DNA of 64,000 bases from a virus, in the IMG/VR virus record IMGVR_UViG_3300014874_000001, positions 1 through 64,000 of that record. One strand, 5' to 3'. The position numbers were made by a program, and so were the translations under genes. The notes below the pieces were generated by a model. It made no database searches and was not told the DNA's origin. It saw nothing but the letters and a program-made list of their open reading frames with translations. This document shows, in pieces, positions 5,850 through 62,157 of this stretch (positions are counted from its first letter, which is position 1; each line of letters begins with the position of its first letter).

Positions 5850-6211
5850 TAATGCTAAACTTCCCGTTGGAGGCACTACAGACAATCGCGGCGGACAAGC
5901 TTCCACGCGTGCGAGTCGCGTTCCCTCAGGGGTCACAGATTCTGCATCTAGGCTCGGGTGGCCCGGAGTTCCCGGTGTGTCTCTCGGTCCTCGCGCCGAT
6001 CCGGCCGAAGAACGCCGATGGCACGATCAAGGAACTACAACCTCACGAGATTGCCGTGATGGAGTTTGCGGTCGTCACGCCGGGCGACGTGGTACCCGAA
6101 GGCTACATCTTCCGCGCTCCGGTTCGGACTCCCCAGGGATTGATCTTCCTGTTCGAGAAGAAGATGACGGGGCCGTCGATCCTCGTTCCACCGGGAGTAG
6201 GACGGGCATGA
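5846..6211 (+). CDS. Hypothetical protein (121 aa)
   Basis: ATG 5846 after GGAGAGAGG, with ATGA overlap to the upstream stop. Confidence 0.55.
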   Translation: MIMLNFPLEALQTIAADKLPRVRVAFPQGSQILHLGSGGPEFPVCLSVLAPIRPKNADGTIKELQPHEIAVMEFAVVTPGDVVPEGYIFRAPVRTPQGLIFLFEKKMTGPSILVPPGVGRA

Positions 6212-7038
6212 GAACCTACGGCAGCTTCGCTACGGCAATTGCGTCGGTTAGTAACCAGATGCGGGACGCTTCGTTCGAGGTCAATGGACTTAAGTGGCAG
6301 TCGATCGACGTATCGACGAAACCTGAGATGAAGATGCGAGAGTGTCTGAACGTCTCGTTCCAGGTCAACACACAGGGGATCGACGCCTGGTCGCACTACC
6401 ATAACGATATCAAGCCGAATTGGCCGTGGGCCGAAGATCATTTCCAGGAGCGAGTCGCGGGCGAGCCTCTGAACCCCGGAGAGCAATGGAAGAACTGGCC
6501 TTGGGCTCTATCGGCCGATAAGTTCCGGACCGAAGGCGAGAAGTTCAGCCATACCTACATGGAACGGTACTGGCCAAAGCTCGCGGGCGACGACGAGCAC
6601 TCGACCAAGGGATTCCTGCGAGGTATTCGATACCCTTACGGAGACCTCAATGATGTCGTCAATCATCTCCTGGGAGATCCACTTACCCGACAAGCGTATC
6701 TCCCTGTCTGGTTCCCGGAGGACACCGGCGTGGTCCATGGCGAGCGCGTTCCGTGTAGCCTGGGCTACCACTGGATTCTCCGTAACGGATATCTCCACAC
6801 CACGTATTACATCCGATCGTGCGACTTCTTCCGACACTTCCGCGACGACCTATACCTATCAATCAGGCTCTCGATCTGGCTCCTCCGACAGCTTCAAGAG
6901 ACAGAACAGGAGTCGGATCACCGTCGCTGGAACGACGTGAAACTCGGCTTCTTCACGTTTCATTGCGTCTCTCTCCATATGTTCATAAATGACTGGAACA
7001 GACTCTATGGCAAAGCGAGTCCTCAAGATTCCCGATGA
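6208..7038 (+). CDS. Thymidylate-synthase-family pyrimidine C5-transferase, dCMP-hydroxymethylase-like (Asp at specificity position)
   Basis: ATG 6208 (ATGA overlap). RQAYLPVWFPED...VPCSLGYHWILRNGYLHTTYYIRSCDFFRHFRDDLYL. Counting from the Cys: R+9, RS+20/21, D+23, FR+28/29, D+31. The track N-terminal extension 5977-6207 was rejected. Confidence 0.75.
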   Translation: MRTYGSFATAIASVSNQMRDASFEVNGLKWQSIDVSTKPEMKMRECLNVSFQVNTQGIDAWSHYHNDIKPNWPWAEDHFQERVAGEPLNPGEQWKNWPWALSADKFRTEGEKFSHTYMERYWPKLAGDDEHSTKGFLRGIRYPYGDLNDVVNHLLGDPLTRQAYLPVWFPEDTGVVHGERVPCSLGYHWILRNGYLHTTYYIRSCDFFRHFRDDLYLSIRLSIWLLRQLQETEQESDHRRWNDVKLGFFTFHCVSLHMFINDWNRLYGKASPQDSR

Positions 7039-7778: not shown

Positions 7779-7863
7779 TTGCCATGCTCGACAGGAGACG
7801 GTCTGGGTAGAGTTACAGGACCTCCTAAACTCAATCGCCCTCGAACCTGGAGAAGCGTTCTAG
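7633..7863 (+). CDS. Possible small zinc-ribbon protein overlapping the deaminase 3' end (start uncertain)
   Basis: C-terminal part of track ORF 7357..7863: ...PRCRLCQRPVESIRVEPDVGKGMLKVTASCHARQETVWVELQDLLNSIALEPGEAF. Third-position GC is higher than in the two competing frames by my count. Its TAG overlaps the polymerase GTG (TAGTG). The TTG 7633 start is a guess. Confidence 0.35.
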   Translation: MRYSNKPEYESNDGPLIIPLPRCRLCQRPVESIRVEPDVGKGMLKVTASCHARQETVWVELQDLLNSIALEPGEAF

Positions 7864-10412
7864 TGCCCTCGCTGAATCCCGCCTGTACGAAGTGTCCGCT
7901 ACATAAAACAACGGACGGTACCGTCTGTCTGGCAGGCGAGGGGCCGCGCAACGCGACGGTCATGGTCGTTGGGGAAGCTCCGGGCCGCGAAGAAGAGAGG
8001 ACTGGCCGCCCGTTCATGGGTGCCAGCGGACAGAAACTCAGAGCGGAGTTACGGAAAAATGGATTGGATGGGGATGTTTTTATTACTAACGTGGTACGCT
8101 GCCGTCCTCCTGATAATCGTACACCGGCCGCTGCGGAGATCAAGGCGTGCCGAGAGTACTTGGACTACGAGATCGCGCGCATTAAGCCCGAGATTGTCGT
8201 TTCGCTTGGGGCCACGCCCACGAAAGCGCTCTTCAAAGGGGTCGCAGCGGTAACGAAGCACCACGGCAAGCTAATTCCCCCGGACAAACACCCGTTCACA
8301 GGGTACGTCTCCTACCACCCAGCGGCGATGCTCTACGATCCGGGCAAGGAGGTAGACTTCCAACAAGACATCGCTCGGCTCGCGCGGATCGCCCGGGACG
8401 AACCCCCGCCCGACAATACGCTGAACTGGGCAATTCTCCGTCGAGGGAACCTCCAGAAGTTCCTCCGTGAGTTTCGCGAGGCGCCTGAGTTCTCCTTCGA
8501 CCTGGAAACCTCTGGCCTTTTCATGCACGACGGACAGGGGTGGATTAACTGCGTCGGGATCGGGCTGCAGAACCGCACATGGGTTATTCCACGAATGCGA
8601 CCGGGCTGGTATCCGTCGCGAGCGAACTCGAAAAAGCTCAAGTTCCACCGAGGCTCCCCGTGGTGTCGGGGGAAGTCCTTCGAGTTTCTCATGCGGATGA
8701 TTATCGGCATGGCGATCCGAGGGAACAAAGGCGTTATCGCTCAGAACGGCAAATTCGATAACCTGTGGCTCCAGCGCTACGTCAACCGTCGGTTTAAGAT
8801 TACGTTCGATACGATGCTCGCGAGTCATACGCTCGATGAGAATGAAGAGCATGATCTTAAGTCGATGTCCCGCAAGTATCTCGACGTGCCCGAGTATGAT
8901 CTGACGACGGCCGAGAAGCGCGGCATTGTCGATCCGATGAAGCTGTTCCAGTATAACGCTCGGGACTGCGGCTATACGCTTCGGCTAAAACACGTCTTCC
9001 AGAAGAAGCTGGAGGAAGAGGAGAGCCAGTTCCGGCTGTTCTATGAGCTCGTCATGCCAGCCGTCCGGGCAATGGAGGATATCGAGCTAGAGGGCAAGAC
9101 GATGAACGTCACGGCCCTAGAAGAACTCGGACTCGACCTTCTGTCCCGCGAGATCAAGCTTAAGCATGACCTCAAGGCCCTCGTCGGTGGAAAGGAGGTT
9201 AACTGGAATTCGCCGAAGCAGGTCGGTGCGATTCTCTATGGGGACCTCGGGATCAAGTGCGTAGCGTTTACGGCTAAGGGCGCGCCGTCTACGGGCGAGA
9301 CCGCGATCCTAGACCTCAAGGGTAAGCATCCAATCGTCGACAAACTCATCGAAGTCCGCGAAGTCTCGAAATTCAGGAGTACGTATGTTATCGGATTCCA
9401 GAAACTCATGGTCGAGGACAAGCTCTACATTTCATACAAAATCCACGGAACAGTTACAGGTCGATATGCCTCGCGTATACACTCGATCCCACGCGACGGG
9501 TCCGTTCGGAATCTGGTTATCGCGCCACCGGGCTGGAAATTTTTCCAAGCGGATATCTCTCAAGCCGAACTCCGAATCATAGCCCAGATGTCGGGCGACC
9601 TCGAAATGAGAAAGTGCTTTACCGAGGGAATAGACATCCACTGGCGGACGATGATGTTCGCGATCGCGGCCGGGTATATCTCGGGAGAGTACGCCCAGCG
9701 GGTAATCGACACAGCCGAGAAGACCACCGGAAAGAAAATGCGGATATCGGAAGCGTGCGACGAGCTACTGAAGATAGGCCACGAGGCCGCGATCAAGATT
9801 TGGCCTGGTTGGAAAGAGGCCCGGAAGAAAGCGAAGGCGATCAACTTCGGATACGTCTATGGAATGTACGAGAAGAAGTTCATACTCACCGCGAAAACCA
9901 AATACGGTTGGGAGCCAACATGGGACGAGGCACACGCTTGCAGGGAAGGCTACTTTCAACTCTACAGCGATTTACCCCGCTGGCACGACAAGCAAAAGAA
10001 ACTCGTGAAGCTGAACGGTTTCGTGAGGACCTTCTTTGGCCGTCGCAGACGGCTACCGGGGATCGAATCGAGCGAGAAGGGACTTCGCATGGAAGCCGAG
10101 AGACAGGCGATCAATTCTCCGGTTCAAGGTACGATTGGTGACTGGAAGGCGGCCGTCCTCGTCGAAATCCACGAGACCCTCGATCGCGATAAGCTCAGGC
10201 TAGTCGGAGAACACCACGACGCGCTCCTTGGCCTGATTCGCGACGGCTGCGAAGACGAGATGCTGCCGCAGGTAATCAAGATTATACGCAAGCCTCGGTT
10301 GCTTCAGAAGTTCAAGGTCCGCATGGAGATACCGATGGACGGAGAGATCGAGATAGGTCCGTGGGGCGCCGGGAAAGCATACAAGCTTCCAATTACAAAG
10401 AAAGTCGCGTAG
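7863..10412 (+). CDS. Family-4 uracil-DNA-glycosylase domain fused to 3'-5' exonuclease and family A DNA polymerase
   Basis: UDG4: CTKCPL, GEAPGREEERTGRPFMGASG, VVRCRPPDNRTPAAAEIKAC (4 Fe-S Cys), HHG, YHPAAMLY. Exo: FSFDLETSGL, AQNGKFDNLWL, YNARDCGYT. Pol: FFQADISQAELRI (A), RKKAKAINFGYVYGM (B), GEHHDAL (C). Start set at GTG 7863 because the 7779-7862 extension has low GC3. Confidence 0.9.
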   Translation: MPSLNPACTKCPLHKTTDGTVCLAGEGPRNATVMVVGEAPGREEERTGRPFMGASGQKLRAELRKNGLDGDVFITNVVRCRPPDNRTPAAAEIKACREYLDYEIARIKPEIVVSLGATPTKALFKGVAAVTKHHGKLIPPDKHPFTGYVSYHPAAMLYDPGKEVDFQQDIARLARIARDEPPPDNTLNWAILRRGNLQKFLREFREAPEFSFDLETSGLFMHDGQGWINCVGIGLQNRTWVIPRMRPGWYPSRANSKKLKFHRGSPWCRGKSFEFLMRMIIGMAIRGNKGVIAQNGKFDNLWLQRYVNRRFKITFDTMLASHTLDENEEHDLKSMSRKYLDVPEYDLTTAEKRGIVDPMKLFQYNARDCGYTLRLKHVFQKKLEEEESQFRLFYELVMPAVRAMEDIELEGKTMNVTALEELGLDLLSREIKLKHDLKALVGGKEVNWNSPKQVGAILYGDLGIKCVAFTAKGAPSTGETAILDLKGKHPIVDKLIEVREVSKFRSTYVIGFQKLMVEDKLYISYKIHGTVTGRYASRIHSIPRDGSVRNLVIAPPGWKFFQADISQAELRIIAQMSGDLEMRKCFTEGIDIHWRTMMFAIAAGYISGEYAQRVIDTAEKTTGKKMRISEACDELLKIGHEAAIKIWPGWKEARKKAKAINFGYVYGMYEKKFILTAKTKYGWEPTWDEAHACREGYFQLYSDLPRWHDKQKKLVKLNGFVRTFFGRRRRLPGIESSEKGLRMEAERQAINSPVQGTIGDWKAAVLVEIHETLDRDKLRLVGEHHDALLGLIRDGCEDEMLPQVIKIIRKPRLLQKFKVRMEIPMDGEIEIGPWGAGKAYKLPITKKVA

Positions 10413-47735: not shown

Positions 47736-49406
47736 CTAGCCGTCATATGGATTGACCCGCTGTTTCATTTCCTCGATCTCTTCCCTGGCCTCGCGCCCGT
47801 GACGTGTTTCATCGTCTTCCTCGATCGTCAACGGGCCGATGAATTCATCCATGAATTTGCGGACTGCCTGCGTCGTCGTATCCAGTAGGTCGTCGTGCTT
47901 GACTGAGCCCGGACCGGTGTACGTACACACCTGACTGATTAAAGGCTCGGCCCACTGCTTGAACTCCCCCTTCCGCTTCTCGCTCTCGACCGCCCAGACC
48001 CGACCGTGGGCCCAGAGTGGTGAGACGTAATGCAACCTCGATAGCTTGTCTGCTCGGCGGGGATTATAGCCTTCTGTAAAGATTTCCTCTACCTCTAGCG
48101 CCTGCCGGAGTGATATGCCACTCCCCTTCTCCTCTATGAGGATGAGGTCTATCTTCTTACCCTGAGGTCCCGGTCTCTGGGCTATAGGGACGATCTTCGG
48201 CCGAAGCTTCACTTCATGGTTGGAGGCCCCGTATCGTATCCGCCGCGCCCGTTTTACCTTCTTGATAAGTTGAGGAAGAGTCAACCAATCCTCCCAGGCA
48301 TCCAAGAGCAAGATATGATTTTCGATCTTCTTCTTTCCACTGCGAAAACGAATGGGTCGCTCGAACAAGCCCCACACCGAGCACGCGGTCGGGTCCCTAG
48401 TTTGCTTCTTCTTGTCGAACGTCTTCTCGGTAAATGCAGTATCCAGGGATAGGATAATGAACTGGAACTTCGGAAGCGGACGATCCGCAGGCCAGACCCG
48501 CCACTCGGACCGCTTGACGAAGCCCTCTTCCTCAGGGTCAAGCACCTCGCCGTGTAGCTCCTGCCGACCAACCTTCGTGCCCTCGTACTTCGCAACCGAT
48601 TGGAAAAATAGCTTCGGCAAGTTCTTCTTGTTTTCGTAGGTCGATCCAACGACGTTCACGACCTCCTTGCTCGCCACCAGCTCGCGAATGAACGGACTAG
48701 GCTTCGGCGTGCCGGTAACCAAGAGGCGTGGATGCGGGCCTAGGCGAAGACCGAACATTATGTTGTCCCACGCCTCTTGGGGATATAGCCAGCTCGCTAT
48801 CTCGTCAAGCCAGCCCGCTGCCGCCTGCGGTCCGCGTAACCGCTCGGGCGTATCGCCCGCGAACCCGCGTATTACCGATCCATTCCACAGTGTGATGGAG
48901 GGAAGTGCCAGGTTACTAGCAACGATGAGCTTCGGGGGTATGACAGAATACAACCCCGTAGGACCCTCGAAGCAGACATAACGTACGTCGTCTTTTGTGG
49001 GGGCCACCACGTAGTATTGGGAAGGAAATGCGGCTGCTTCCATCCCGAGCCAATTCGATCCGACCAGAGTTTTGCCCCAGCCTCGACCGGAGCGCGCGAC
49101 CCAGATAGTTTTTTCAAAGGCATCGAACTCCTTTGGGGGTAGCTGTTTTTCTCGGGCCATCGCTCGCCACATCATCCGCCATCGGAGGAATAGCAGCTCC
49201 TCCTCGGTGAATTGCGCGAGCGTATCTTTGTACTGTACTAGCTTCTCGGATACCTCTTCAGGCATTCCGCGCAGAAGCGGGGCATCGTAATTGAGATGAA
49301 CCCGCTGGTAGACATTCGCGAAGTTAACCGTTACTGACCGACCGTCGCTCACTTCGCTCTTTTTCCTTATTGCGTCGCGCCTCGACCTCAACGGGGTCCA
49401 GCTCAA
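47736..49406 (-). CDS. terL: Terminase large subunit (start uncertain)
   Basis: ARSGRGWGKT (Walker A), AAGWLDEIASW (Walker B), ILSLDTAF nuclease Asp. The longest start, 49406, overlaps the upstream gene by 83 nt. Confidence 0.85.
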   Translation of the reverse strand: MSWTPLRSRRDAIRKKSEVSDGRSVTVNFANVYQRVHLNYDAPLLRGMPEEVSEKLVQYKDTLAQFTEEELLFLRWRMMWRAMAREKQLPPKEFDAFEKTIWVARSGRGWGKTLVGSNWLGMEAAAFPSQYYVVAPTKDDVRYVCFEGPTGLYSVIPPKLIVASNLALPSITLWNGSVIRGFAGDTPERLRGPQAAAGWLDEIASWLYPQEAWDNIMFGLRLGPHPRLLVTGTPKPSPFIRELVASKEVVNVVGSTYENKKNLPKLFFQSVAKYEGTKVGRQELHGEVLDPEEEGFVKRSEWRVWPADRPLPKFQFIILSLDTAFTEKTFDKKKQTRDPTACSVWGLFERPIRFRSGKKKIENHILLLDAWEDWLTLPQLIKKVKRARRIRYGASNHEVKLRPKIVPIAQRPGPQGKKIDLILIEEKGSGISLRQALEVEEIFTEGYNPRRADKLSRLHYVSPLWAHGRVWAVESEKRKGEFKQWAEPLISQVCTYTGPGSVKHDDLLDTTTQAVRKFMDEFIGPLTIEEDDETRHGREAREEIEEMKQRVNPYDG

Positions 49407-49560
49407 GAGCCCGTCGAATAGTCATGTGCGAGACGTTGAACTGCTCAGCAAGTTCTTCGACCTTCAAAAACTGGAGACGGGATTGCCGTCTTCGTGCGCA
49501 GACCCTTTGGATGTACTGAACTTCTTCCGCCGTGAGTTTCGGCAGCTTACCTCTCGCCAT
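49324..49560 (-). CDS. HTH DNA-binding protein
   Basis: MARGKLPKLTAEEVQYIQ...ELAEQFNVSHMTIRRAL. Confidence 0.55.
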   Translation of the reverse strand: MARGKLPKLTAEEVQYIQRVCARRRQSRLQFLKVEELAEQFNVSHMTIRRALELDPVEVEARRNKEKERSERRSVSNG

Positions 49561-49769
49561 CACTTAGGCATCTCGTCGTTGAATACGTGTCGCAGCCAGC
49601 AGAGGTCGCCTAGCGACTGCTTCGTCCAGAAGGCCTCCGTGTGTCCGTTCTTGTAGTGAACGACCGCCCCCATATTTTCGATTTCATCGGCCGTCTCCAT
49701 CAATTTCGCAATGAAGACGGCGGGAGTCGTCGCCAACCCCGGAAGCATATCAACCTTCGACCCTTTCAT
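49560..49769 (-). CDS. Hypothetical protein (69 aa)
   Basis: Track ORF. ATGA overlap with the csrA-like stop. Confidence 0.5.
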   Translation of the reverse strand: MKGSKVDMLPGLATTPAVFIAKLMETADEIENMGAVVHYKNGHTEAFWTKQSLGDLCWLRHVFNDEMPK

Positions 49770-49942
49770 CGGGGCTCCCGCGTGATTGTATGTCCCTCGG
49801 GGGCTTCAACACCGAGCTTGACACGCCCCCCTTTCACCTCCAGAATCGTAACGACGATCCGTTCGGTCATCCGGACACCGTCGATCGTGACTTCGGTCTC
49901 GATCACAACGGTCTCGGTGTTCTTACGACTCAGAACCAGCAC
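49766..49942 (-). CDS. csrA: CsrA/RsmA-family RNA-binding protein homologue (58 aa)
   Basis: Not in the ORF track (<60 aa). GTG 49942 lies 1 nt after the upstream TAA. MLVLSRKNTETVVIETEVTIDGVRMTERIVVTILEVKGGRVKLGVEAPEGHTITREPR, compared with the CsrA consensus MLILTRR.GE...I....V.VL.VKG.QV+IG..AP..V.+.REE. Contains a ~12-aa insertion after beta-1. Confidence 0.75.
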   Translation of the reverse strand: MLVLSRKNTETVVIETEVTIDGVRMTERIVVTILEVKGGRVKLGVEAPEGHTITREPR

Positions 49943-49943
49943 G

Positions 49944-50372
49944 TTACAGCCCGAAGAACGTCTTCACGATGGATTGGAACACCAGATCCTTCGCCTGCTG
50001 ATGCGGAGGCAGCTCCTCGTAAGGCACCATGCACGGGTGCGTCTTCGCGACTGGGTCCTTCACCGGCCCGAGCTTCCAACCCTCCGCGATCTTGTAATTC
50101 CACCAAGCCGTATGGTTCTCCGTCGGGCTCTCGTTCGGGTTTTCCAGCATACGCTCGATCCCCGCGATGATAGTGGCCTTATTCGAGTCCCAGTCGAGGG
50201 TATTTTCATGTCGCGCGTCGTTCTGGGCCTTCGTCGCTTCGTGGATCAGCTTCGCGCACATCAGAATCGCGTCCTCCGTAGGTTCCACCAGATCGTACTT
50301 GATCCTCGGCAGCAGCCGCTCGAATCCGTCCGCTTCCGCGCGCTCGATCTCTCTGTCCATCTCGTTTTTCAT
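49944..50372 (-). CDS. RyR-domain protein
   Basis: ATG 50372 after AAGGAG (alternative ATG 50435). ...NHTAWWNYKIAEGWKLGPVKDPVAKTHPCMVPYEELPPHQQAKDLVF matches the RyR-domain pattern (W...K...GW..G......K.HP.LVPY.EL....K..D). Confidence 0.65.
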   Translation of the reverse strand: MKNEMDREIERAEADGFERLLPRIKYDLVEPTEDAILMCAKLIHEATKAQNDARHENTLDWDSNKATIIAGIERMLENPNESPTENHTAWWNYKIAEGWKLGPVKDPVAKTHPCMVPYEELPPHQQAKDLVFQSIVKTFFGL

Positions 50373-50574
50373 TCGAAAATGCTCCTTCACTCGTTGTGTT
50401 GTTTCCCGGCAGACTCTTTCTACGTCGTGTTTCATTGTCCCAAGCCCTCAAGACCATTCGGCAATAGAGGGGGTGGGGCATCAGGACGATGTTCCTCGGA
50501 TAGTACACGCCGTGTGGCGCTACGTTCGTGATCCCCAGCTCCCTCACTACCCCGAAGTTCAGTCTTATGCTCAT
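50206..50574 (-). CDS. Hypothetical ORF; only the first ~46 codons look coding, the rest overprints the RyR gene
   Basis: AAGGAA before ATG 50574. GC3 is about 75% for codons 1-48 by my count. There is no stop until 50206. Confidence 0.35.
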   Translation of the reverse strand: MSIRLNFGVVRELGITNVAPHGVYYPRNIVLMPHPLYCRMVLRAWDNETRRRKSLPGNNTTSEGAFSNEKRDGQRDRARGSGRIRAAAAEDQVRSGGTYGGRDSDVREADPRSDEGPERRAT

Positions 50575-51394: not shown

Positions 51395-51985
51395 TTAGGG
51401 TACCGCACATCGCGCAAAAACTACGTCCGGGCTCACTCCCGGAAGTAACACTAGCCCGGAGGTCCCCAACGGTATCAGGTACATGTCCGCCTGATCATCC
51501 TCCTGGTTCCCCCAGAAGTTGATTTTCTGTGTCCCGTCGCACGGGGTCCCATTCGCCACCGTCCCGACCGCCTGTTTCGTAACTGCGTTGTTGACGGTAC
51601 TCAGGGTATACGCGTTATTGATCGAGGTCGGCCCTGCCACAACGAGCCCGGTGGGTGGAAGGGGATCGGCGGTGATCGTTTTGCTCGCGGGGGTCGCTTT
51701 CGCACTCTCCACTCCGGCGGAGTTAATCGCCGTGACGGAGAAGAACCACGTCCCGCTCGGCAGCTGATCGATCGTCGTCCCACATCCCGCTGAACTCGGA
51801 GTCGTCCTCGTATTCTGCAGCGCCGTAACCGACAGACCCCAGTACCACCTGTACTGAGCGAGGTTCGTCAGGTTCGTCCCGTCCGTGTTCTTGGTCGGCG
51901 CAGTGCATGTCAGAATCGCCGAGTTCTGCTGCGCCTGGGCGCCGAGGGCGATGAGAAGTAAGGCGAGGAAGGCTATCAGTCTCAT
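51395..51985 (-). CDS. Secreted FN3-like protein, paralog 2
   Basis: ATG 51985 (ATGA overlap). MRLIAFLALLLIALGAQAQQ signal peptide. APTKNTDGTNLTNLAQYRWYW ... FSVTAINSAGVES. Confidence 0.6.
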   Translation of the reverse strand: MRLIAFLALLLIALGAQAQQNSAILTCTAPTKNTDGTNLTNLAQYRWYWGLSVTALQNTRTTPSSAGCGTTIDQLPSGTWFFSVTAINSAGVESAKATPASKTITADPLPPTGLVVAGPTSINNAYTLSTVNNAVTKQAVGTVANGTPCDGTQKINFWGNQEDDQADMYLIPLGTSGLVLLPGVSPDVVFARCAVP

Positions 51986-52401
51986 GGGTTTGTCCTCAGG
52001 GTTATGGTCAAGGCTCCCGGACTCTCGGAAACGGTCTGCGGGTTTTCCAGCCCGGACGTGAACGAAAAATCGTTGCTGTGTGAACTCCACTCCTCGGGAT
52101 TCGCCCTCACCGTCGCATAGCAGGTCCAGAACTGCGAGCCCGGAAAATCATAGTCCGCGGTGACCACTGGAGTCAGGAATGGCTCGCGAAGAACGATGTC
52201 GATGTTCGTAGGCCCCGAGCACCAGAAGTCCACGCGGTTGATCTCGGACCTGGGGAGCGCGGAGTTATCCTCGTTCTGTGTCGGCAGTTCGAGAGAGAGG
52301 GTCCAAACCTCCGCCCTAGCATACGGACTCACGGCTATCGCCGCAATCAACAGCGCGATTGCGCCGGTGAGAGAGAGCCAAAATTTCATTCGGTTCGTCA
52401 T
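51982..52401 (-). CDS. Secreted FN3-like protein, paralog 1
   Basis: MTNRMKFWLSLTGAIALLIAAIAVSPYARAE signal peptide. LPTQNEDNSALPRSEINRVDFW. Confidence 0.6.
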   Translation of the reverse strand: MTNRMKFWLSLTGAIALLIAAIAVSPYARAEVWTLSLELPTQNEDNSALPRSEINRVDFWCSGPTNIDIVLREPFLTPVVTADYDFPGSQFWTCYATVRANPEEWSSHSNDFSFTSGLENPQTVSESPGALTITLRTNP

Positions 52402-52419
52402 ACCACCTCCCTCGTGCTG

Positions 52420-52436
52420 CCGAGTAGGATACTCGG
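52420..52436. promoter_or_regulatory. 7-bp inverted repeat (ccgagta gga tactcgg) in the divergent intergenic region
   Basis: Direct reading. Lies 19 nt upstream of the - strand start at 52401. Confidence 0.4.
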
Positions 52437-52462
52437 TTGTCGGTTCGGGGGAAACAGTCGCC

Positions 52463-52522
52463 TGAATATCGTGGAGAAAGAGTGGTGTCGGGTACGATAT
52501 ACTATAGGGACCGGAAGGTCCC
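52463..52522 (+). promoter_or_regulatory. Candidate promoter: TGAAT-N30-TATACT (GATATACTATAGGGA) plus GC leader hairpin
   Basis: TGAAT 52463-52467, TATACT 52498-52503, hairpin gggacc-ggaa-ggtccc 52507-52522, AGGAGA, ATG 52540. Confidence 0.5.
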
Positions 52523-52539
52523 GGTATAGGAGACGTGAA

Positions 52540-52878
52540 ATGGTTAGGAAGGTACAGAAGGGCGATCGACGCGCGGCCCGAGTCCGGCGCATCGCCAAGG
52601 GTGGTTCAGAGTCGCGTCGGAACCTGGAAGGCGCGCTCTACGATCTCTGGATGGATTCCGAGGAACGGCCGGTGAGGCGGAAGGAGACCCGGGAGGTCCG
52701 TGCGTTGGTGTCGAGACACCTCGGGGAGATACGGTTGCGAGCTTTTGATCTAGCCCAGAAGGCTATCGATGCAGGGTTAAAAGCCGATGACCTTGAGGGG
52801 ATGGTAATCCCGGCCACCGAAAAGCTCGGGATCATGTACAAGCAGCTCAAGGTCGCGATGCTAGGAGAGAAGCCGTGA
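52540..52878 (+). CDS. Hypothetical helical basic protein (112 aa), first gene of the inverted island
   Basis: ATG 52540 six nt after AGGAGA. In frame with track ORF 52414..52878. Confidence 0.55.
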   Translation: MVRKVQKGDRRAARVRRIAKGGSESRRNLEGALYDLWMDSEERPVRRKETREVRALVSRHLGEIRLRAFDLAQKAIDAGLKADDLEGMVIPATEKLGIMYKQLKVAMLGEKP

Positions 52879-53081
52879 GCCACGGTAGGCGACTCACCCG
52901 GAAGCAGAAACGTCGTCACGGCGAGGCCGACGGTTCGGAGGAAGAGTGTCCAGGCTGTGGTCGGAGGTATTTCTGCAGCGGCTATGCCAAGCTAACGGCG
53001 GCTCTCCTGCGACAACACCCGACTTGTAGTCGCGAGTGCCACTTGAAGATGAACGGTAACGGAATGGGAGGTGTCCTATGA
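52875..53081 (+). CDS. Small zinc-finger-like protein (68 aa)
   Basis: CPGCGRRYFC...CSRECH. 4-nt start/stop overlap with the upstream gene. Confidence 0.5.
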   Translation: MSHGRRLTRKQKRRHGEADGSEEECPGCGRRYFCSGYAKLTAALLRQHPTCSRECHLKMNGNGMGGVL

Positions 53082-53293
53082 CGAGTCGGATACCTCGGGG
53101 AAAGGGAAACCCGAACCTTGGCCGGAACCCTCCACCGGGCCGCCGGCAGTGGCGACGGAAATCAATCGAACTTAAAATCCAATCGGAGGGCTGGGAAGAT
53201 GAGACCGACCAAAGCCGAGTTTCCAACGACGTTCCGGGGGACTCGGGTGTACGTGAGGATGGAAGCCCTGGTCCGGGTGAACGGGAACGTTGA
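53078..53293 (+). CDS. Doubtful ORF (Arg/Gly/Pro-rich), overlaps the next gene
   Basis: Track ORF, with ATGA overlap to the upstream stop. Composition is poor. Confidence 0.25.
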   Translation: MTSRIPRGKGNPNLGRNPPPGRRQWRRKSIELKIQSEGWEDETDQSRVSNDVPGDSGVREDGSPGPGERER

Positions 53294-53399
53294 TGTGAAG
53301 ATACGTTTCGAGGGGGAGGACGGAAAATCCGTGAAATGGGACCCCTTGCCGACCAAAGCCGAACTTGCCCAGTTGTGCAGAGCCGCTCATATAGTATAG
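53199..53399 (+). CDS. Hypothetical protein (66 aa)
   Basis: ATG 53199. MRPTKAEFPTTFRGTRVYVRMEALVRVNGNVDVKIRFEGEDGKSVKWDPLPTKAELAQL. Confidence 0.5.
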   Translation: MRPTKAEFPTTFRGTRVYVRMEALVRVNGNVDVKIRFEGEDGKSVKWDPLPTKAELAQLCRAAHIV

Positions 53400-53581
53400 G
53401 CGGGTAGGTGCGATTTATAGGTGTCACGCTTGTGTTTTCTACTCATACCGGGCTGCACGGGTCCTGCGCACGACCACCCTAGGTCTTGAGTTGTGGCCAC
53501 GGGGGTGGGGGTAGTTGCAACCTGCAATTATTCCAATCACGGGATCAACCCACGTCCGGGAATCTGCCACACACAGCCACA

Positions 53582-53606
53582 CAAAAAGAAGCGGGCCGAC
53601 GCCCGC
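53582..53606 (-). terminator. Rho-independent terminator after the Lys-rich protein gene
   Basis: - strand: gcgggc gtcg gcccgc, then ttctttttg. Confidence 0.8.
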
Positions 53607-53625
53607 CTCTCGTTAGCCTAGCTAA

Positions 53626-54374: not shown

Positions 54375-54944
54375 TCAAGCGTTGTCGGGCTGCGGGCGGA
54401 TCATGTTGAGCAACGAGTTAATGACGTCCAGCTTCGTCTCGTCCTTCACTCCAATCGGCCTGGCACCGGGCGAGCGATCCCCGCCGATCTGAGTCTTATC
54501 ACCCCAATATGATGGAGCACGATTGTTGAGCCAATACTTCTGTGCATTGGTCTCTGCAGGGTAGTACTTCTCGACTTGCACGACCTGCGCTCCTCGCCGA
54601 GTTCGCACGACTTCATCGGATGTCTTGACGTAGCCGATAGCATTGGAGTGCAGAGCTGCTACCACTTGTGCATCAGCTGCCATGCGGCCTTCTTCGATTG
54701 CCTTGGCGAGTTGCGGATAGTACGCCTTCCAGGATGCCAGGAGTTCGGAGCTAACACCCATGACTGCGGCCATCTCGTCGTCAGTTAGACCTCGCATTGC
54801 TATGGCCTTTACGTGATCGATGCGGTCCGGCCAGAAGATGGTTGACTCGACGGCCTCCGGTGTGGTGCGCTTGGGTCTTGTGAACCTTGCTTTGACACCA
54901 GTTGTGCGCCGATGCTTTTTATTACGCTCTGTCTTTCGTGCCAT
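54375..54944 (-). CDS. terS: Terminase small subunit
   Basis: HTH RGLTDDEMAAVMGVSSELLASWKAYYPQLAKAIEEG and the C-terminal NAQKYWLNNRAPSYWGDK motif characteristic of many TerS proteins (..fWLkNR.P..W+dK). Confidence 0.7.
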   Translation of the reverse strand: MARKTERNKKHRRTTGVKARFTRPKRTTPEAVESTIFWPDRIDHVKAIAMRGLTDDEMAAVMGVSSELLASWKAYYPQLAKAIEEGRMAADAQVVAALHSNAIGYVKTSDEVVRTRRGAQVVQVEKYYPAETNAQKYWLNNRAPSYWGDKTQIGGDRSPGARPIGVKDETKLDVINSLLNMIRPQPDNA

Positions 54945-56980: not shown

Positions 56981-57177
56981 GACAGTGGAGGCTCGTTCGG
57001 CAGTACTACGAGACTCTCTACTGGGATGTGCCAGTTCCTCATAACCACTATATCCTTCAGTATAGAGAGGACGAGGGAGTGTGGGAGACCGTTCCAATTG
57101 TCCGGTTCGACGACCTAAGCGAGCAGGAACAAACCGCTCTCCAGAGACAGTTGGAGGAACTATGTTCGGGTCAATAG
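56977..57177 (+). CDS. Hypothetical protein (66 aa)
   Basis: Track ORF. ATGA overlap. Confidence 0.55.
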   Translation: MRQWRLVRQYYETLYWDVPVPHNHYILQYREDEGVWETVPIVRFDDLSEQEQTALQRQLEELCSGQ

Positions 57178-57365
57178 GGGAGGAGCCTCAGAAGCTCTCA
57201 GACGTCCTGGAGGACATCGGTGTTAGGCTCATGCAGGCCGTACCGAAGCAGGCGGGATTGACGCTGAACTTCTACCAACTGCTAATGGATACGTCCGGCC
57301 GCCTGGCCGCGTGCGTAGTCGAAGCGCGACTCATGGAGGGTAGGCTCGATGCCTCGAAAGAGTAA
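57162..57365 (+). CDS. Hypothetical protein (67 aa)
   Basis: ATG 57162 after GGAGGA. In frame with track ORF 57081..57365. Confidence 0.5.
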   Translation: MFGSIGEEPQKLSDVLEDIGVRLMQAVPKQAGLTLNFYQLLMDTSGRLAACVVEARLMEGRLDASKE

Positions 57366-60914: not shown

Positions 60915-61375
60915 CACCAGCACATCAGTGGTTAGCGATCGCGTTCTTTGTCGGAGTCGGCCTCATTCTCGGAGCGCTGGTCTTATGGAAGCGTACGATC
61001 TGGGCAAAGAAGAAGGACCTCAGTGGAGGGTTCCTGACCGAGCGGGAGTTGAACTCACGAATGGGACCGCCCCCCGATCTGCGTGAGAGGATGGGTCCTT
61101 CACCCGAGCTACTGCATGAGCGCTGGGAGGACTTCGAGCGCGCGAAGCGAACGCCGCGACGCGGACCGCTCGCTGTCGATCTAGCGCAAGAGCAGAAGCG
61201 CAGAGAGCGTGATCCACTCGACGAGAAGGGCTTCTATGGTCCCGGGGGACTCATGGGAGTCGGCGCGCTCGGGTCAATCGCGAACGAGCACGTGCATCAC
61301 TCGCCACCGGACTGCTCACCCTCCGACTCGGGATCGAGCGATAGCGGGAGCTGCGATTCGGGCGGTGGAGAATGA
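60911..61375 (+). CDS. Membrane-anchored protein with Ser/Asp/Gly-rich C-terminus
   Basis: WLAIAFFVGVGLILGALVLW TM segment. ATGA overlap. Confidence 0.55.
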   Translation: MTPAHQWLAIAFFVGVGLILGALVLWKRTIWAKKKDLSGGFLTERELNSRMGPPPDLRERMGPSPELLHERWEDFERAKRTPRRGPLAVDLAQEQKRRERDPLDEKGFYGPGGLMGVGALGSIANEHVHHSPPDCSPSDSGSSDSGSCDSGGGE

Positions 61376-62157
61376 AGACCGAAGTACTCGACCACGGCTA
61401 CATCCGTCTGGTATCGTATACGCAGCCAGTACCGGACGGGCTTGATAAGCATGGATGGGCCATGAGAGATCGGAGCTGGACGGGCGATCTGGAGATCGTA
61501 CGGGCTGCGCGCGTCTCGTACAACGCCGACTGGAGAAAGAACGACCTCAACCTCGGCCAGTCTTCCGACGAGAAGCTGATCGATTTCCTCTGGAGAAACA
61601 AGCATACCAGTCCGTTCGAGGCGATGACGTTCTCGTTCGAGGTGCAAGCTCCGATCTTCGTCTTTCGCCAGTGGCATCGGCATAGGACGCAGAGCTACAA
61701 CGAGGTCTCGGCTCGTTACACTGAGCTGCCCGAGCTGTTCTATGTTCCGGACGCAGACCAGGTACGGGCTCAATCGAAGTCGAACAAGCAGGGCCGAGAC
61801 GAGGAGCTGGACGGGAGGTCGGTGACTCTCTTTCGCCAACAGCTGACGGAGGAGTCGTCCTCGCAGTTTAACTCGTACCAGTTCTGGCTCGCCCAAGGCG
61901 TAGCAAGGGAGCTGGCGCGGCTCTACCTACCGGTGAACACGTACAGCCGGATGTACGCAAGCGCAAATCTCCTTAACTGGTTTCGGTTCCTAACCCTCCG
62001 CGCGGACCTACATGCCCAGTACGAGATCCGGGTCTACGCCGAGGCGATGGTCGCGATGCTAGCGAGCGTCTGTCCGATCGCGGTCACGGCCTTCCTCCGA
62101 TACAGATTCGACGTGACCGACGTAGACGCCGAGCGGGAGCGGAATACCGGGCTCTGA
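61372..62157 (+). CDS. thyX: Flavin-dependent thymidylate synthase ThyX
   Basis: FRQWHRHRTQSYNEVSARY (RHRxxSxxxxSxR ThyX motif), 261 aa. Confidence 0.9.
   Translation: MKTEVLDHGYIRLVSYTQPVPDGLDKHGWAMRDRSWTGDLEIVRAARVSYNADWRKNDLNLGQSSDEKLIDFLWRNKHTSPFEAMTFSFEVQAPIFVFRQWHRHRTQSYNEVSARYTELPELFYVPDADQVRAQSKSNKQGRDEELDGRSVTLFRQQLTEESSSQFNSYQFWLAQGVARELARLYLPVNTYSRMYASANLLNWFRFLTLRADLHAQYEIRVYAEAMVAMLASVCPIAVTAFLRYRFDVTDVDAERERNTGL

Follow-up and report, generated by a model that had tools for sequence, protein, structure and literature searches.

Can a reading frame of only 58 codons in a phage operon encode a working protein of the CsrA/RsmA family, and what would such a protein do during infection? 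CsrA is among the main post-transcriptional regulators in bacteria; plasmid copies have been shown to take over host behaviour, and phage copies have been catalogued. The frame in question lies in a 64,000-nucleotide stretch (hereafter, the window) covering positions 1 to 64,000 of the IMG/VR virus record IMGVR_UViG_3300014874_000001. The window is a phage genome, with genes for the large and small terminase subunits (TerL and TerS), a portal-like protein, DNA polymerase A, an SNF2 helicase, a PD-(D/E)XK nuclease and ThyX. The reading that we prefer, and consider reasonably probable, is that the phage does express this frame as a genuine gene and that it encodes a minimal CsrA/RsmA protein, which would act as a GGA-RNA-binding dimer and translational repressor.

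Phage-borne CsrA/RsmA genes have been reported in 30 of 2517 phage genomes (Sobrero & Valverde 2020, PMC7366521). Phage CsrA genes were also surveyed in GenBank and IMG/VR, and their presence was found to correlate with host CsrA (Campa et al. 2021, PMC8450108). Carriers in these surveys include Burkholderia phage DC1 and P. aeruginosa phage F116 (PMC7366521, PMC8450108), and a PHROG family for such proteins exists. The novelty that the initial annotation of this locus implied for a phage CsrA was thus overstated. Since phage CsrA/RsmA genes were already catalogued in 2020-2021, the gene represents a new structural variant and not a new kind of system. Its interest, which is modest, lies in its minimal architecture and its constant pairing with an HTH gene, and not in the mere presence of CsrA in a phage. 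Our literature search found no experimental test of any phage CsrA copy.

A short, coupled gene of the CsrA family

The gene occupies positions 49766..49942 on the minus strand. It opens with GTG, runs for 58 codons and closes with TGA, and both its coordinates and its translation are exactly those first reported. We regard the GTG as a credible start, because no earlier start codon lies between it and the preceding in-frame stop and because the alignment to the CsrA profile begins at residue 1. The coupling described on both sides of the gene is also present. Upstream, a single nucleotide separates the GTG from the stop of a RyR-domain gene ending at 49944 (TAA-C-GTG), and downstream the stop overlaps the start of the next gene (49560-49769) in ATGA. 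No Shine-Dalgarno sequence was seen ahead of the GTG, and translation therefore presumably depends on coupling to the RyR-domain gene.

Homology searches identify the frame as a phage-encoded CsrA/RsmA-family gene, in agreement with the initial annotation. The profile search that had been suggested as a check gave a significant match to the Pfam CsrA profile (PF02599; 53.8 bits against a gathering cutoff of 27, E = 1.9e-14), with residues 1-56 aligned to profile positions 1-45 of 53. The PHROG 9500 profile, "CsrA-like regulator", matched the same residues over its positions 1-45 of 65 (43.5 bits, E = 4.9e-11). The NCBIfam csrA equivalog models matched significantly as well (E from 4e-13 to 7e-9), all below their curated cutoffs: TIGR00202 scored 49.2 bits against 70.1 (E = 4.4e-13), NF002469 44.5 bits against 73, and NF001844 35.7 bits against 106. 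Given these sub-cutoff scores, we regard the protein as a member of the family and not as an orthologue of the housekeeping CsrA. A single-sequence search of the PDB matched E. coli CsrA weakly (E = 1e-3). A profile of the subfamily defined below retrieved CsrA, RsmE and RsmA chains at E-values of 5e-11 to 1e-9, and RsmF/RsmN at about 5e-5. For annotation purposes, the gene should be named "CsrA family protein" instead of hypothetical, a change of small practical consequence.

We searched 1.84 billion representative proteins exhaustively with HMMER and obtained only 25 matches at E <= 1e-3. Three of these (P0002, P0003 and P0004) share the long hairpin described below and an abrupt R-E-P-R/K end, and IMG/VR contig L015 holds a fifth copy of the form. 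All five long-hairpin, helix-less occurrences found are in related uncultured phages. Scans of IMG/VR (56 CsrA loci) and of metagenome contigs (78 CsrA loci) with the subfamily alignment yielded no further member, only canonical CsrAs and the L015 contig again, and tblastn of the protein against 50,697 GenBank phage records gave no match. The long-hairpin, helix-less form of CsrA is rare.

A short frame with a GTG start, no Shine-Dalgarno sequence and no counterpart of the C-terminal part of the family domain might be spurious, or a functionless truncated remnant of a captured csrA. The comparison among copies argues strongly against this. The five are diverged (53-84% identity), yet every one ends in R-E-P-R/K-stop, and at all five loci the CsrA-like start overlaps the upstream stop or lies within 5 nt of it while the CsrA-like stop overlaps the next start. 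Furthermore, dN/dS is 0.24 against the 84%-identical orthologue in L025, and the GC content of the gene (0.582) matches that of the window (0.575). Together, the dN/dS ratio, the shared ends of diverged copies and the phage-like GC content indicate a gene under purifying selection and not a recent or decaying insert. We consider decay extremely unlikely and treat the frame as a real gene.

Conserved RNA-binding strands in a remodelled fold

Strands beta1 and beta5 of CsrA and RsmE build the GGA-binding surface, and both are readily recognized in the phage protein. Beta1 (codons 1-7, positions 49922..49942, minus strand) carries the motif M-L-x-L-x-R-(K/R) from residue 1 as MLVLSRK. Beta5 (codons 51-56, positions 49775..49792, minus strand) reads HTITRE and includes the conserved Arg-Glu pair (R44-E45 in E. 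coli numbering). In an alignment of 16 CsrA proteins, L2, L4, R6, E10 and R55 (R44 of E. coli) are invariant; L2, L4 and R6 are likewise invariant in the five-member subfamily, as are R55, E56 and P57. The "VHRE" motif of beta5 is ITRE here, with V42 replaced by Ile, H43 by Thr, and the essential Arg kept. In the plasmid homologue RsmQ, both H43A and R44A lower GGA binding, R44A to the point of abolishing it (PMC9928087). We regard the Thr in place of H43 as a minor departure from the beta5 motif. At the position equivalent to V40, the subfamily has His, Tyr or Trp. In canonical CsrA, RNA contacts also come from the first residues of the C-terminal helix. Because the helix is absent and the V40 equivalent differs, the affinity or specificity for RNA may differ from that of canonical CsrA.

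The architecture around these strands is altered at two places. The first is a hairpin extension (ETEVTIDGVRMTER, codons 15-28, positions 49859..49900, minus strand), which adds 11 residues over canonical CsrA between beta2 and beta3, as determined by alignment with canonical CsrAs and by a structure model. The initial annotation had correctly noticed an insertion; it had put its length at about 12 residues, where we count 11, and its site after beta1, which alignment and model move to the beta2-beta3 hairpin. The second is the C-terminus. The protein ends two residues past the R-E of beta5 (P-R-stop), and the absence of a C-terminal helix, already noted, is seen in the model too.

The model is an AlphaFold2 monomer prediction built from a seven-sequence alignment (mean pLDDT 85). 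Its strands span residues 10-20, 23-37 and 40-46, with a hairpin turn at D21-G22, from which we conclude that the insertion lengthens the beta2-beta3 hairpin. Beta2, beta3 and beta4 are formed in the monomer, and residues 1-9 and 47-58 are unpaired. Such unpaired terminal strands would be compatible with a strand-swapped dimer, in which beta1 and beta5 pair with a second chain. Searching the PDB with this model by Foldseek returned RsmA (1vpz) and CsrA (2bti and 5z38) as the top matches, with TM scores of 0.61-0.63, an rmsd of 2.4 Å and probabilities of 0.99-1.00; the accompanying E-values are weak because the protein is very small. The core fold is thus that of the family.

Extra beta2-beta3 residues and the lack of a C-terminal helix are also found in RsmN/RsmF of P. 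aeruginosa (PDB 4kji and 4k59), so the missing helix limits the term "canonical CsrA" and not membership in the family. In RsmN/RsmF, however, the inserted segment is a relocated alpha-helix, whereas a longer beta-hairpin is predicted for the phage protein. We rejected an RsmN/RsmF-like topology for the latter, since its insert is modelled as a beta-hairpin and the subfamily profile scores canonical CsrA at about 45 bits and RsmF/RsmN at about 26 bits.

The hairpin extension is the most variable region of the protein: six of the nine amino-acid differences from the L025 orthologue fall within residues 15-26. In four of the five subfamily members, the extension carries a net acidic charge. An acidic, fast-evolving hairpin, a lost helix, scores below the equivalog cutoffs and a constant partner of DNA-binding type next to terL might indicate that the fold has been repurposed. 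The protein would then bind no RNA; instead, its acidic hairpins would bind other proteins or mimic DNA, possible partners being the HTH protein and the packaging machinery. The pattern of conservation is the reverse of what this would lead one to expect. The most conserved residues of the subfamily (L2, L4, R6 and R55-E56) are those that bind RNA in CsrA, and conservation is lowest in the hairpin, which would have to supply the new functional surface. We therefore judge repurposing highly unlikely and retain the reading of an RNA-binding protein.

On the nucleotide level, the heptamer GAGACCG occurs twice, 15 nt apart, at 49898-49915 of the minus strand within the hairpin-coding segment (codons E10-T11 and E15-T16). 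This is a hint that a short tandem duplication produced part of the extension; the L025 orthologue does not have the repeat, which may therefore be due to chance.

A variable slot ahead of the large terminase gene

The genes around the CsrA-like gene run, on the minus strand, in the order RyR-domain gene, CsrA-like gene, 69-aa gene, 79-aa HTH gene, terL and portal-like gene. The CsrA-like gene had been described as lying just upstream of the terminase gene; in fact, the 69-aa and 79-aa genes stand between the two. The RyR-domain gene (163 aa, 49944..50435, minus strand) matches Pfam RyR (PF02026, E = 3.3e-10) and phrog_5154 (function unknown, E = 5.9e-29). It is the immediate upstream neighbour of the CsrA-like gene in L015, L025 and L108 as well, and a 90-aa gene intervenes in L106/L107. 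The 69-aa gene (49560..49769, minus strand), for which no Pfam match was obtained, is wedged between the CsrA-like and HTH genes in this phage only; its homologues lie directly upstream of terL in L008-L011, relatives without the CsrA-like gene. The HTH gene (79 aa, 49324..49563, minus strand) matches Pfam HTH_DeoR at 29 bits (cutoff 21) and GntR at 27.5 bits, and in L015, L025, L107 and L108 its homologue follows the CsrA-like gene directly, with a 4-nt overlap. Next comes terL (47736..49406, minus strand; Terminase_6N, E = 7.9e-14), the head of the downstream packaging and structural genes, whose product is 80-93% identical in related IMG/VR contigs.

All five long-hairpin occurrences are paired with a small HTH gene and are located between a RyR-domain gene and terL. 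In L009-L013, whose TerL is 80-83% identical, the RyR gene is kept and the CsrA-like and HTH genes are both absent. Since the two genes are present or absent together among relatives, we regard them as a cassette of two accessory genes that occupies a variable position in front of terL. RyR homologues ahead of terL were seen in L009, L010, L012, L013, L015, L020 and L106-L108, with or without this cassette.

We also asked what the HTH protein might be. A role as small terminase was rejected because a clear TerS gene is found elsewhere (54375..54944, minus strand; phrog_309, E = 2e-30). The PDB search returned no credible relative of the HTH protein, only TPR matches without an aligned stretch. 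Likewise, PADLOC gave no meaningful match for the six local genes; a single sub-threshold mad1 row to the HTH protein had no aligned stretch.

The distance of about 5 kb between TerS and terL, with about ten small genes in between, is an unusual split of packaging genes. The intervening region contains a strong terminator-like hairpin (53586-53611) and a part of uncertain coding status (about 52400-53600). At the head of the operon, the products of 51982-52401 and 51395-52090 (both minus strand) have apparent N-terminal signal peptides and no PHROG or confident Pfam match, apart from a faint Fn3-like match in one of them; one would not expect genes for secreted proteins immediately ahead of packaging genes. 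The TerL homologue of L020 (4998-7418) is 806 aa long, compared with the usual length of about 540, pointing to an inserted intein or additional domain.

Search for RNA targets in the phage

Scans of the window for candidate GGA sites revealed neither an RNA target nor a sponge RNA. A GGA lies within 20 nt upstream of about 72 of 100 predicted starts, these starts having been chosen to favour a Shine-Dalgarno sequence and the background being 0.34 per random 20-mer. The earlier remark that nearly all ribosome-binding sites are GGAG/AGGAG was accordingly too strong. GGA in the Shine-Dalgarno region is common but generic, and hence cannot identify targets. The high-affinity motif CANGGANG is not enriched in the window (38 found versus 38.8 expected), and an Rfam scan of the whole window detected no CsrB/CsrC/RsmX/Y/Z-type RNA and no other family. 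Sliding-window density revealed no non-coding GGA cluster, all outliers being inside coding sequence; an apparent intergenic outlier at 57066-57215 was rejected because it is covered by plus-strand frames. A candidate autoregulatory GGA at the junction of the CsrA-like gene with the next gene was also rejected, as it is not conserved in orthologues. Of the roles that the initial annotation had suggested, namely host shut-off, titration of CsrB/RsmY-type sRNAs and timing of late-gene translation, none is favoured by the sequence over the others.

These results bear on the idea that the protein regulates the phage from within, tuning its own late genes (HTH, terL and structural genes) or shutting off early mRNAs, possibly as one layer of a two-layer cassette with the HTH protein. 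The constant HTH pairing, with both genes gained or lost together among related phages, would fit such a role, as would the place of the gene inside a tightly coupled operon leading into terL and the GGA in the Shine-Dalgarno region of about 72% of predicted phage starts. However, relatives with an 80-83% identical TerL do without the cassette, so the late programme does not need it. In addition, the phage shows no enrichment of high-affinity sites, and orthologues do not share the GGA at the downstream junction. We consider an internal role unlikely; in the reading that we prefer, the targets would be host mRNAs and possibly early phage mRNAs.

Relatives among viral and cellular CsrA proteins

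CsrA genes were found on 56 IMG/VR contigs. We compared the protein with 57 viral CsrA domains, a set that includes the subfamily's own copy in L109. No insertion was found in 43 of the 57 domains; ten have an insertion of 1-3 residues, three an insertion of 5-6 residues, and one is a residue shorter than the profile. The domains other than L109 continue for 6-104 residues past the R-E, compared with 2 in L109, and all other CsrA domains examined extend at least 6 residues beyond it. A few viral CsrAs are only 51-53 aa long, so C-terminal trimming is a tendency among phage CsrAs and not unique to this subfamily. Like the surveyed phage CsrAs (phrog_9500), the gene belongs to the CsrA family, is carried by a tailed phage and has kept the conserved motifs of beta1 and beta5. 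It differs from them in its 11-residue hairpin extension and its end two residues past the R-E, whereas the surveyed proteins were reported as highly similar to bacterial CsrA (PMC8450108).

One viral CsrA, L007 (815-1210), has a 15-residue insert, SPETVKMLAEHG, at the same beta2-beta3 site. To judge from the helix-like sequence of the insert, this phage protein may be arranged in the manner of RsmN/RsmF.

The cellular relatives closest to the phage protein are 36-57% identical to it and were found at 79 genome loci; 62 of these loci belong to Planctomycetota MAGs. A large group of these nearest Planctomycetota CsrAs carries six extra residues, including a D-G turn, at the position of the phage insertion and keeps the helix. 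These paralogues share with the phage protein the MLVLSRKN N-terminus, the VKGGRVKLG core and the D-G-turn insertion, and reach 57% identity. They differ in keeping the EVWE helix start, followed by a further tail of 8-54 residues, and in having GFE where the phage protein has GVEAP. From these likenesses, the phage gene looks like a further-modified offshoot of a Planctomycetota-type CsrA.

The class with the 6-residue insertion comprises L064, L068, L070, L084 and about 35 further genome loci among L027-L105, and has the motif MLVLSRKNQESVVVGGADGFHRLLKVTVLEIKGGRVRLGFEVD..VPVHR.EVWE. An MpsC/DUF2294 gene (PF10057; E of about 2e-24 for the two tested) lies directly upstream of the CsrA gene in four of five sampled loci. 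Our literature search found no description of this class or of its MpsC pairing. No FliW gene was seen beside 12 sampled Planctomycetota CsrA genes. Among the nearest database matches, seven proteins of 107-176 aa (P0005, P0009, P0015, P0017, P0019, P0021 and P0022) are natural tandem fusions of two CsrA domains, which would be single-chain "dimers".

Because the CsrA resembles the modified Planctomycetota type, Planctomycetota are our best guess for the host, which would then probably have a large network of CsrA paralogues. No phage genes common to the window and the cellular CsrA loci were found, and no tRNA was found in the window. By TerL, the closest cultured phages infect Caulobacter (46-47% identity), a lineage that, to our knowledge, is generally without CsrA. 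No CsrA gene is present near terL in the nearest isolates, Caulobacter phages RW, GB2A, RLK and KcrB.

A host rich in CsrA paralogues would also suit an anti-CsrA role. By swapping beta1 and beta5 strands with host CsrA paralogues, the phage protein could give heterodimers that are inactive or altered, or it could soak up CsrA antagonists, either sponge RNAs or protein partners. The plasmid protein RsmQ provides a precedent for both, as it heterodimerises with host RsmA/RsmE and binds the host sponge RNAs RsmY/RsmZ (PMC9928087). The distribution of conservation would fit as well: conservation is high in the core that forms the dimer, while the chains of a heterodimer would differ at the hairpin tip and at the C-terminus, both of which are remodelled. 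The presumed source phylum, moreover, is rich in CsrA paralogues, including the natural tandem fusions. Nevertheless, all RNA-binding residues are conserved, which a pure poison subunit would not need, and a longer hairpin could equally prevent heterodimers from forming. We find an anti-CsrA role unlikely and keep direct repression of mRNAs as the preferred reading.

Proposed mode of action

As a translational repressor, the phage CsrA would be expected by homology to form an intertwined homodimer, with two GGA sites, each formed where beta1 (MLVLSRK) of one chain meets beta5 (ITRE) of its partner. These sites would recognize GGA in RNA hairpin loops and Shine-Dalgarno regions, and binding would block ribosome access or alter mRNA stability. 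Because the gene is inside the operon leading into terL, its product, translated through coupling to the upstream RyR-domain gene, probably appears together with the late gene products.

In cellular CsrA, the helix and tail are docking surfaces for protein antagonists (FliW, CesT complexes). The phage protein may thus have kept the RNA-binding core and shed the parts that cellular partners use to control CsrA. During infection it could repress, free of such control, the translation of host mRNAs and perhaps that of early phage mRNAs. That the loss of the tail gives "FliW insensitivity" in particular is a general inference only.

The best functional model for the phage copy is RsmQ, a CsrA copy on a Pseudomonas fluorescens plasmid and thus, likewise, on a mobile element. 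In experiments, RsmQ binds GGA/AnGGA in hairpin loops through its VHRE motif (PMC9928087). It is a precedent for a mobile-element CsrA that can take control of host translation (PMC9928087). The two proteins differ in several respects: RsmQ has the canonical architecture and belongs to a conjugative plasmid of a gammaproteobacterium, whereas the phage protein has ITRE and is without the helix.

A bolder reading joins the two cassette genes. Here, the helix-less, long-hairpin CsrA and the HTH protein would form a phage-specific regulatory cassette, with the hairpin as a new surface for host CsrA paralogues, for their antagonists or for the HTH protein, and the cassette would rewire or disable the host Csr system. 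We give this only an outside chance. If true, it would supply the phage with a dominant-negative subunit or an antagonist-proof CsrA, unlike the mere addition of one more CsrA.

Irrespective of its targets, the gene illustrates how far a phage can pare CsrA: 58 residues, no helix and an extended hairpin, with the RNA-binding strands under purifying selection. For structural and binding studies, it provides a minimal CsrA made by nature. The gene also draws attention to uncultured phages, perhaps infecting Planctomycetota, that may tap an unusually rich network of CsrA paralogues.

Elsewhere in the window, the plus strand encodes a set of polymerase and nucleotide-metabolism genes. The DNA polymerase A (7779-10412) is fused to an N-terminal domain of the uracil-DNA-glycosylase superfamily (UDG), and ThyX (5977-7038) is accompanied by a distant thymidylate-synthase-like protein (61372-62157; 18.9 bits, below cutoff). 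The UDG-polymerase fusion, ThyX and the thymidylate-synthase-like protein hint at a modified or unusual nucleotide metabolism.
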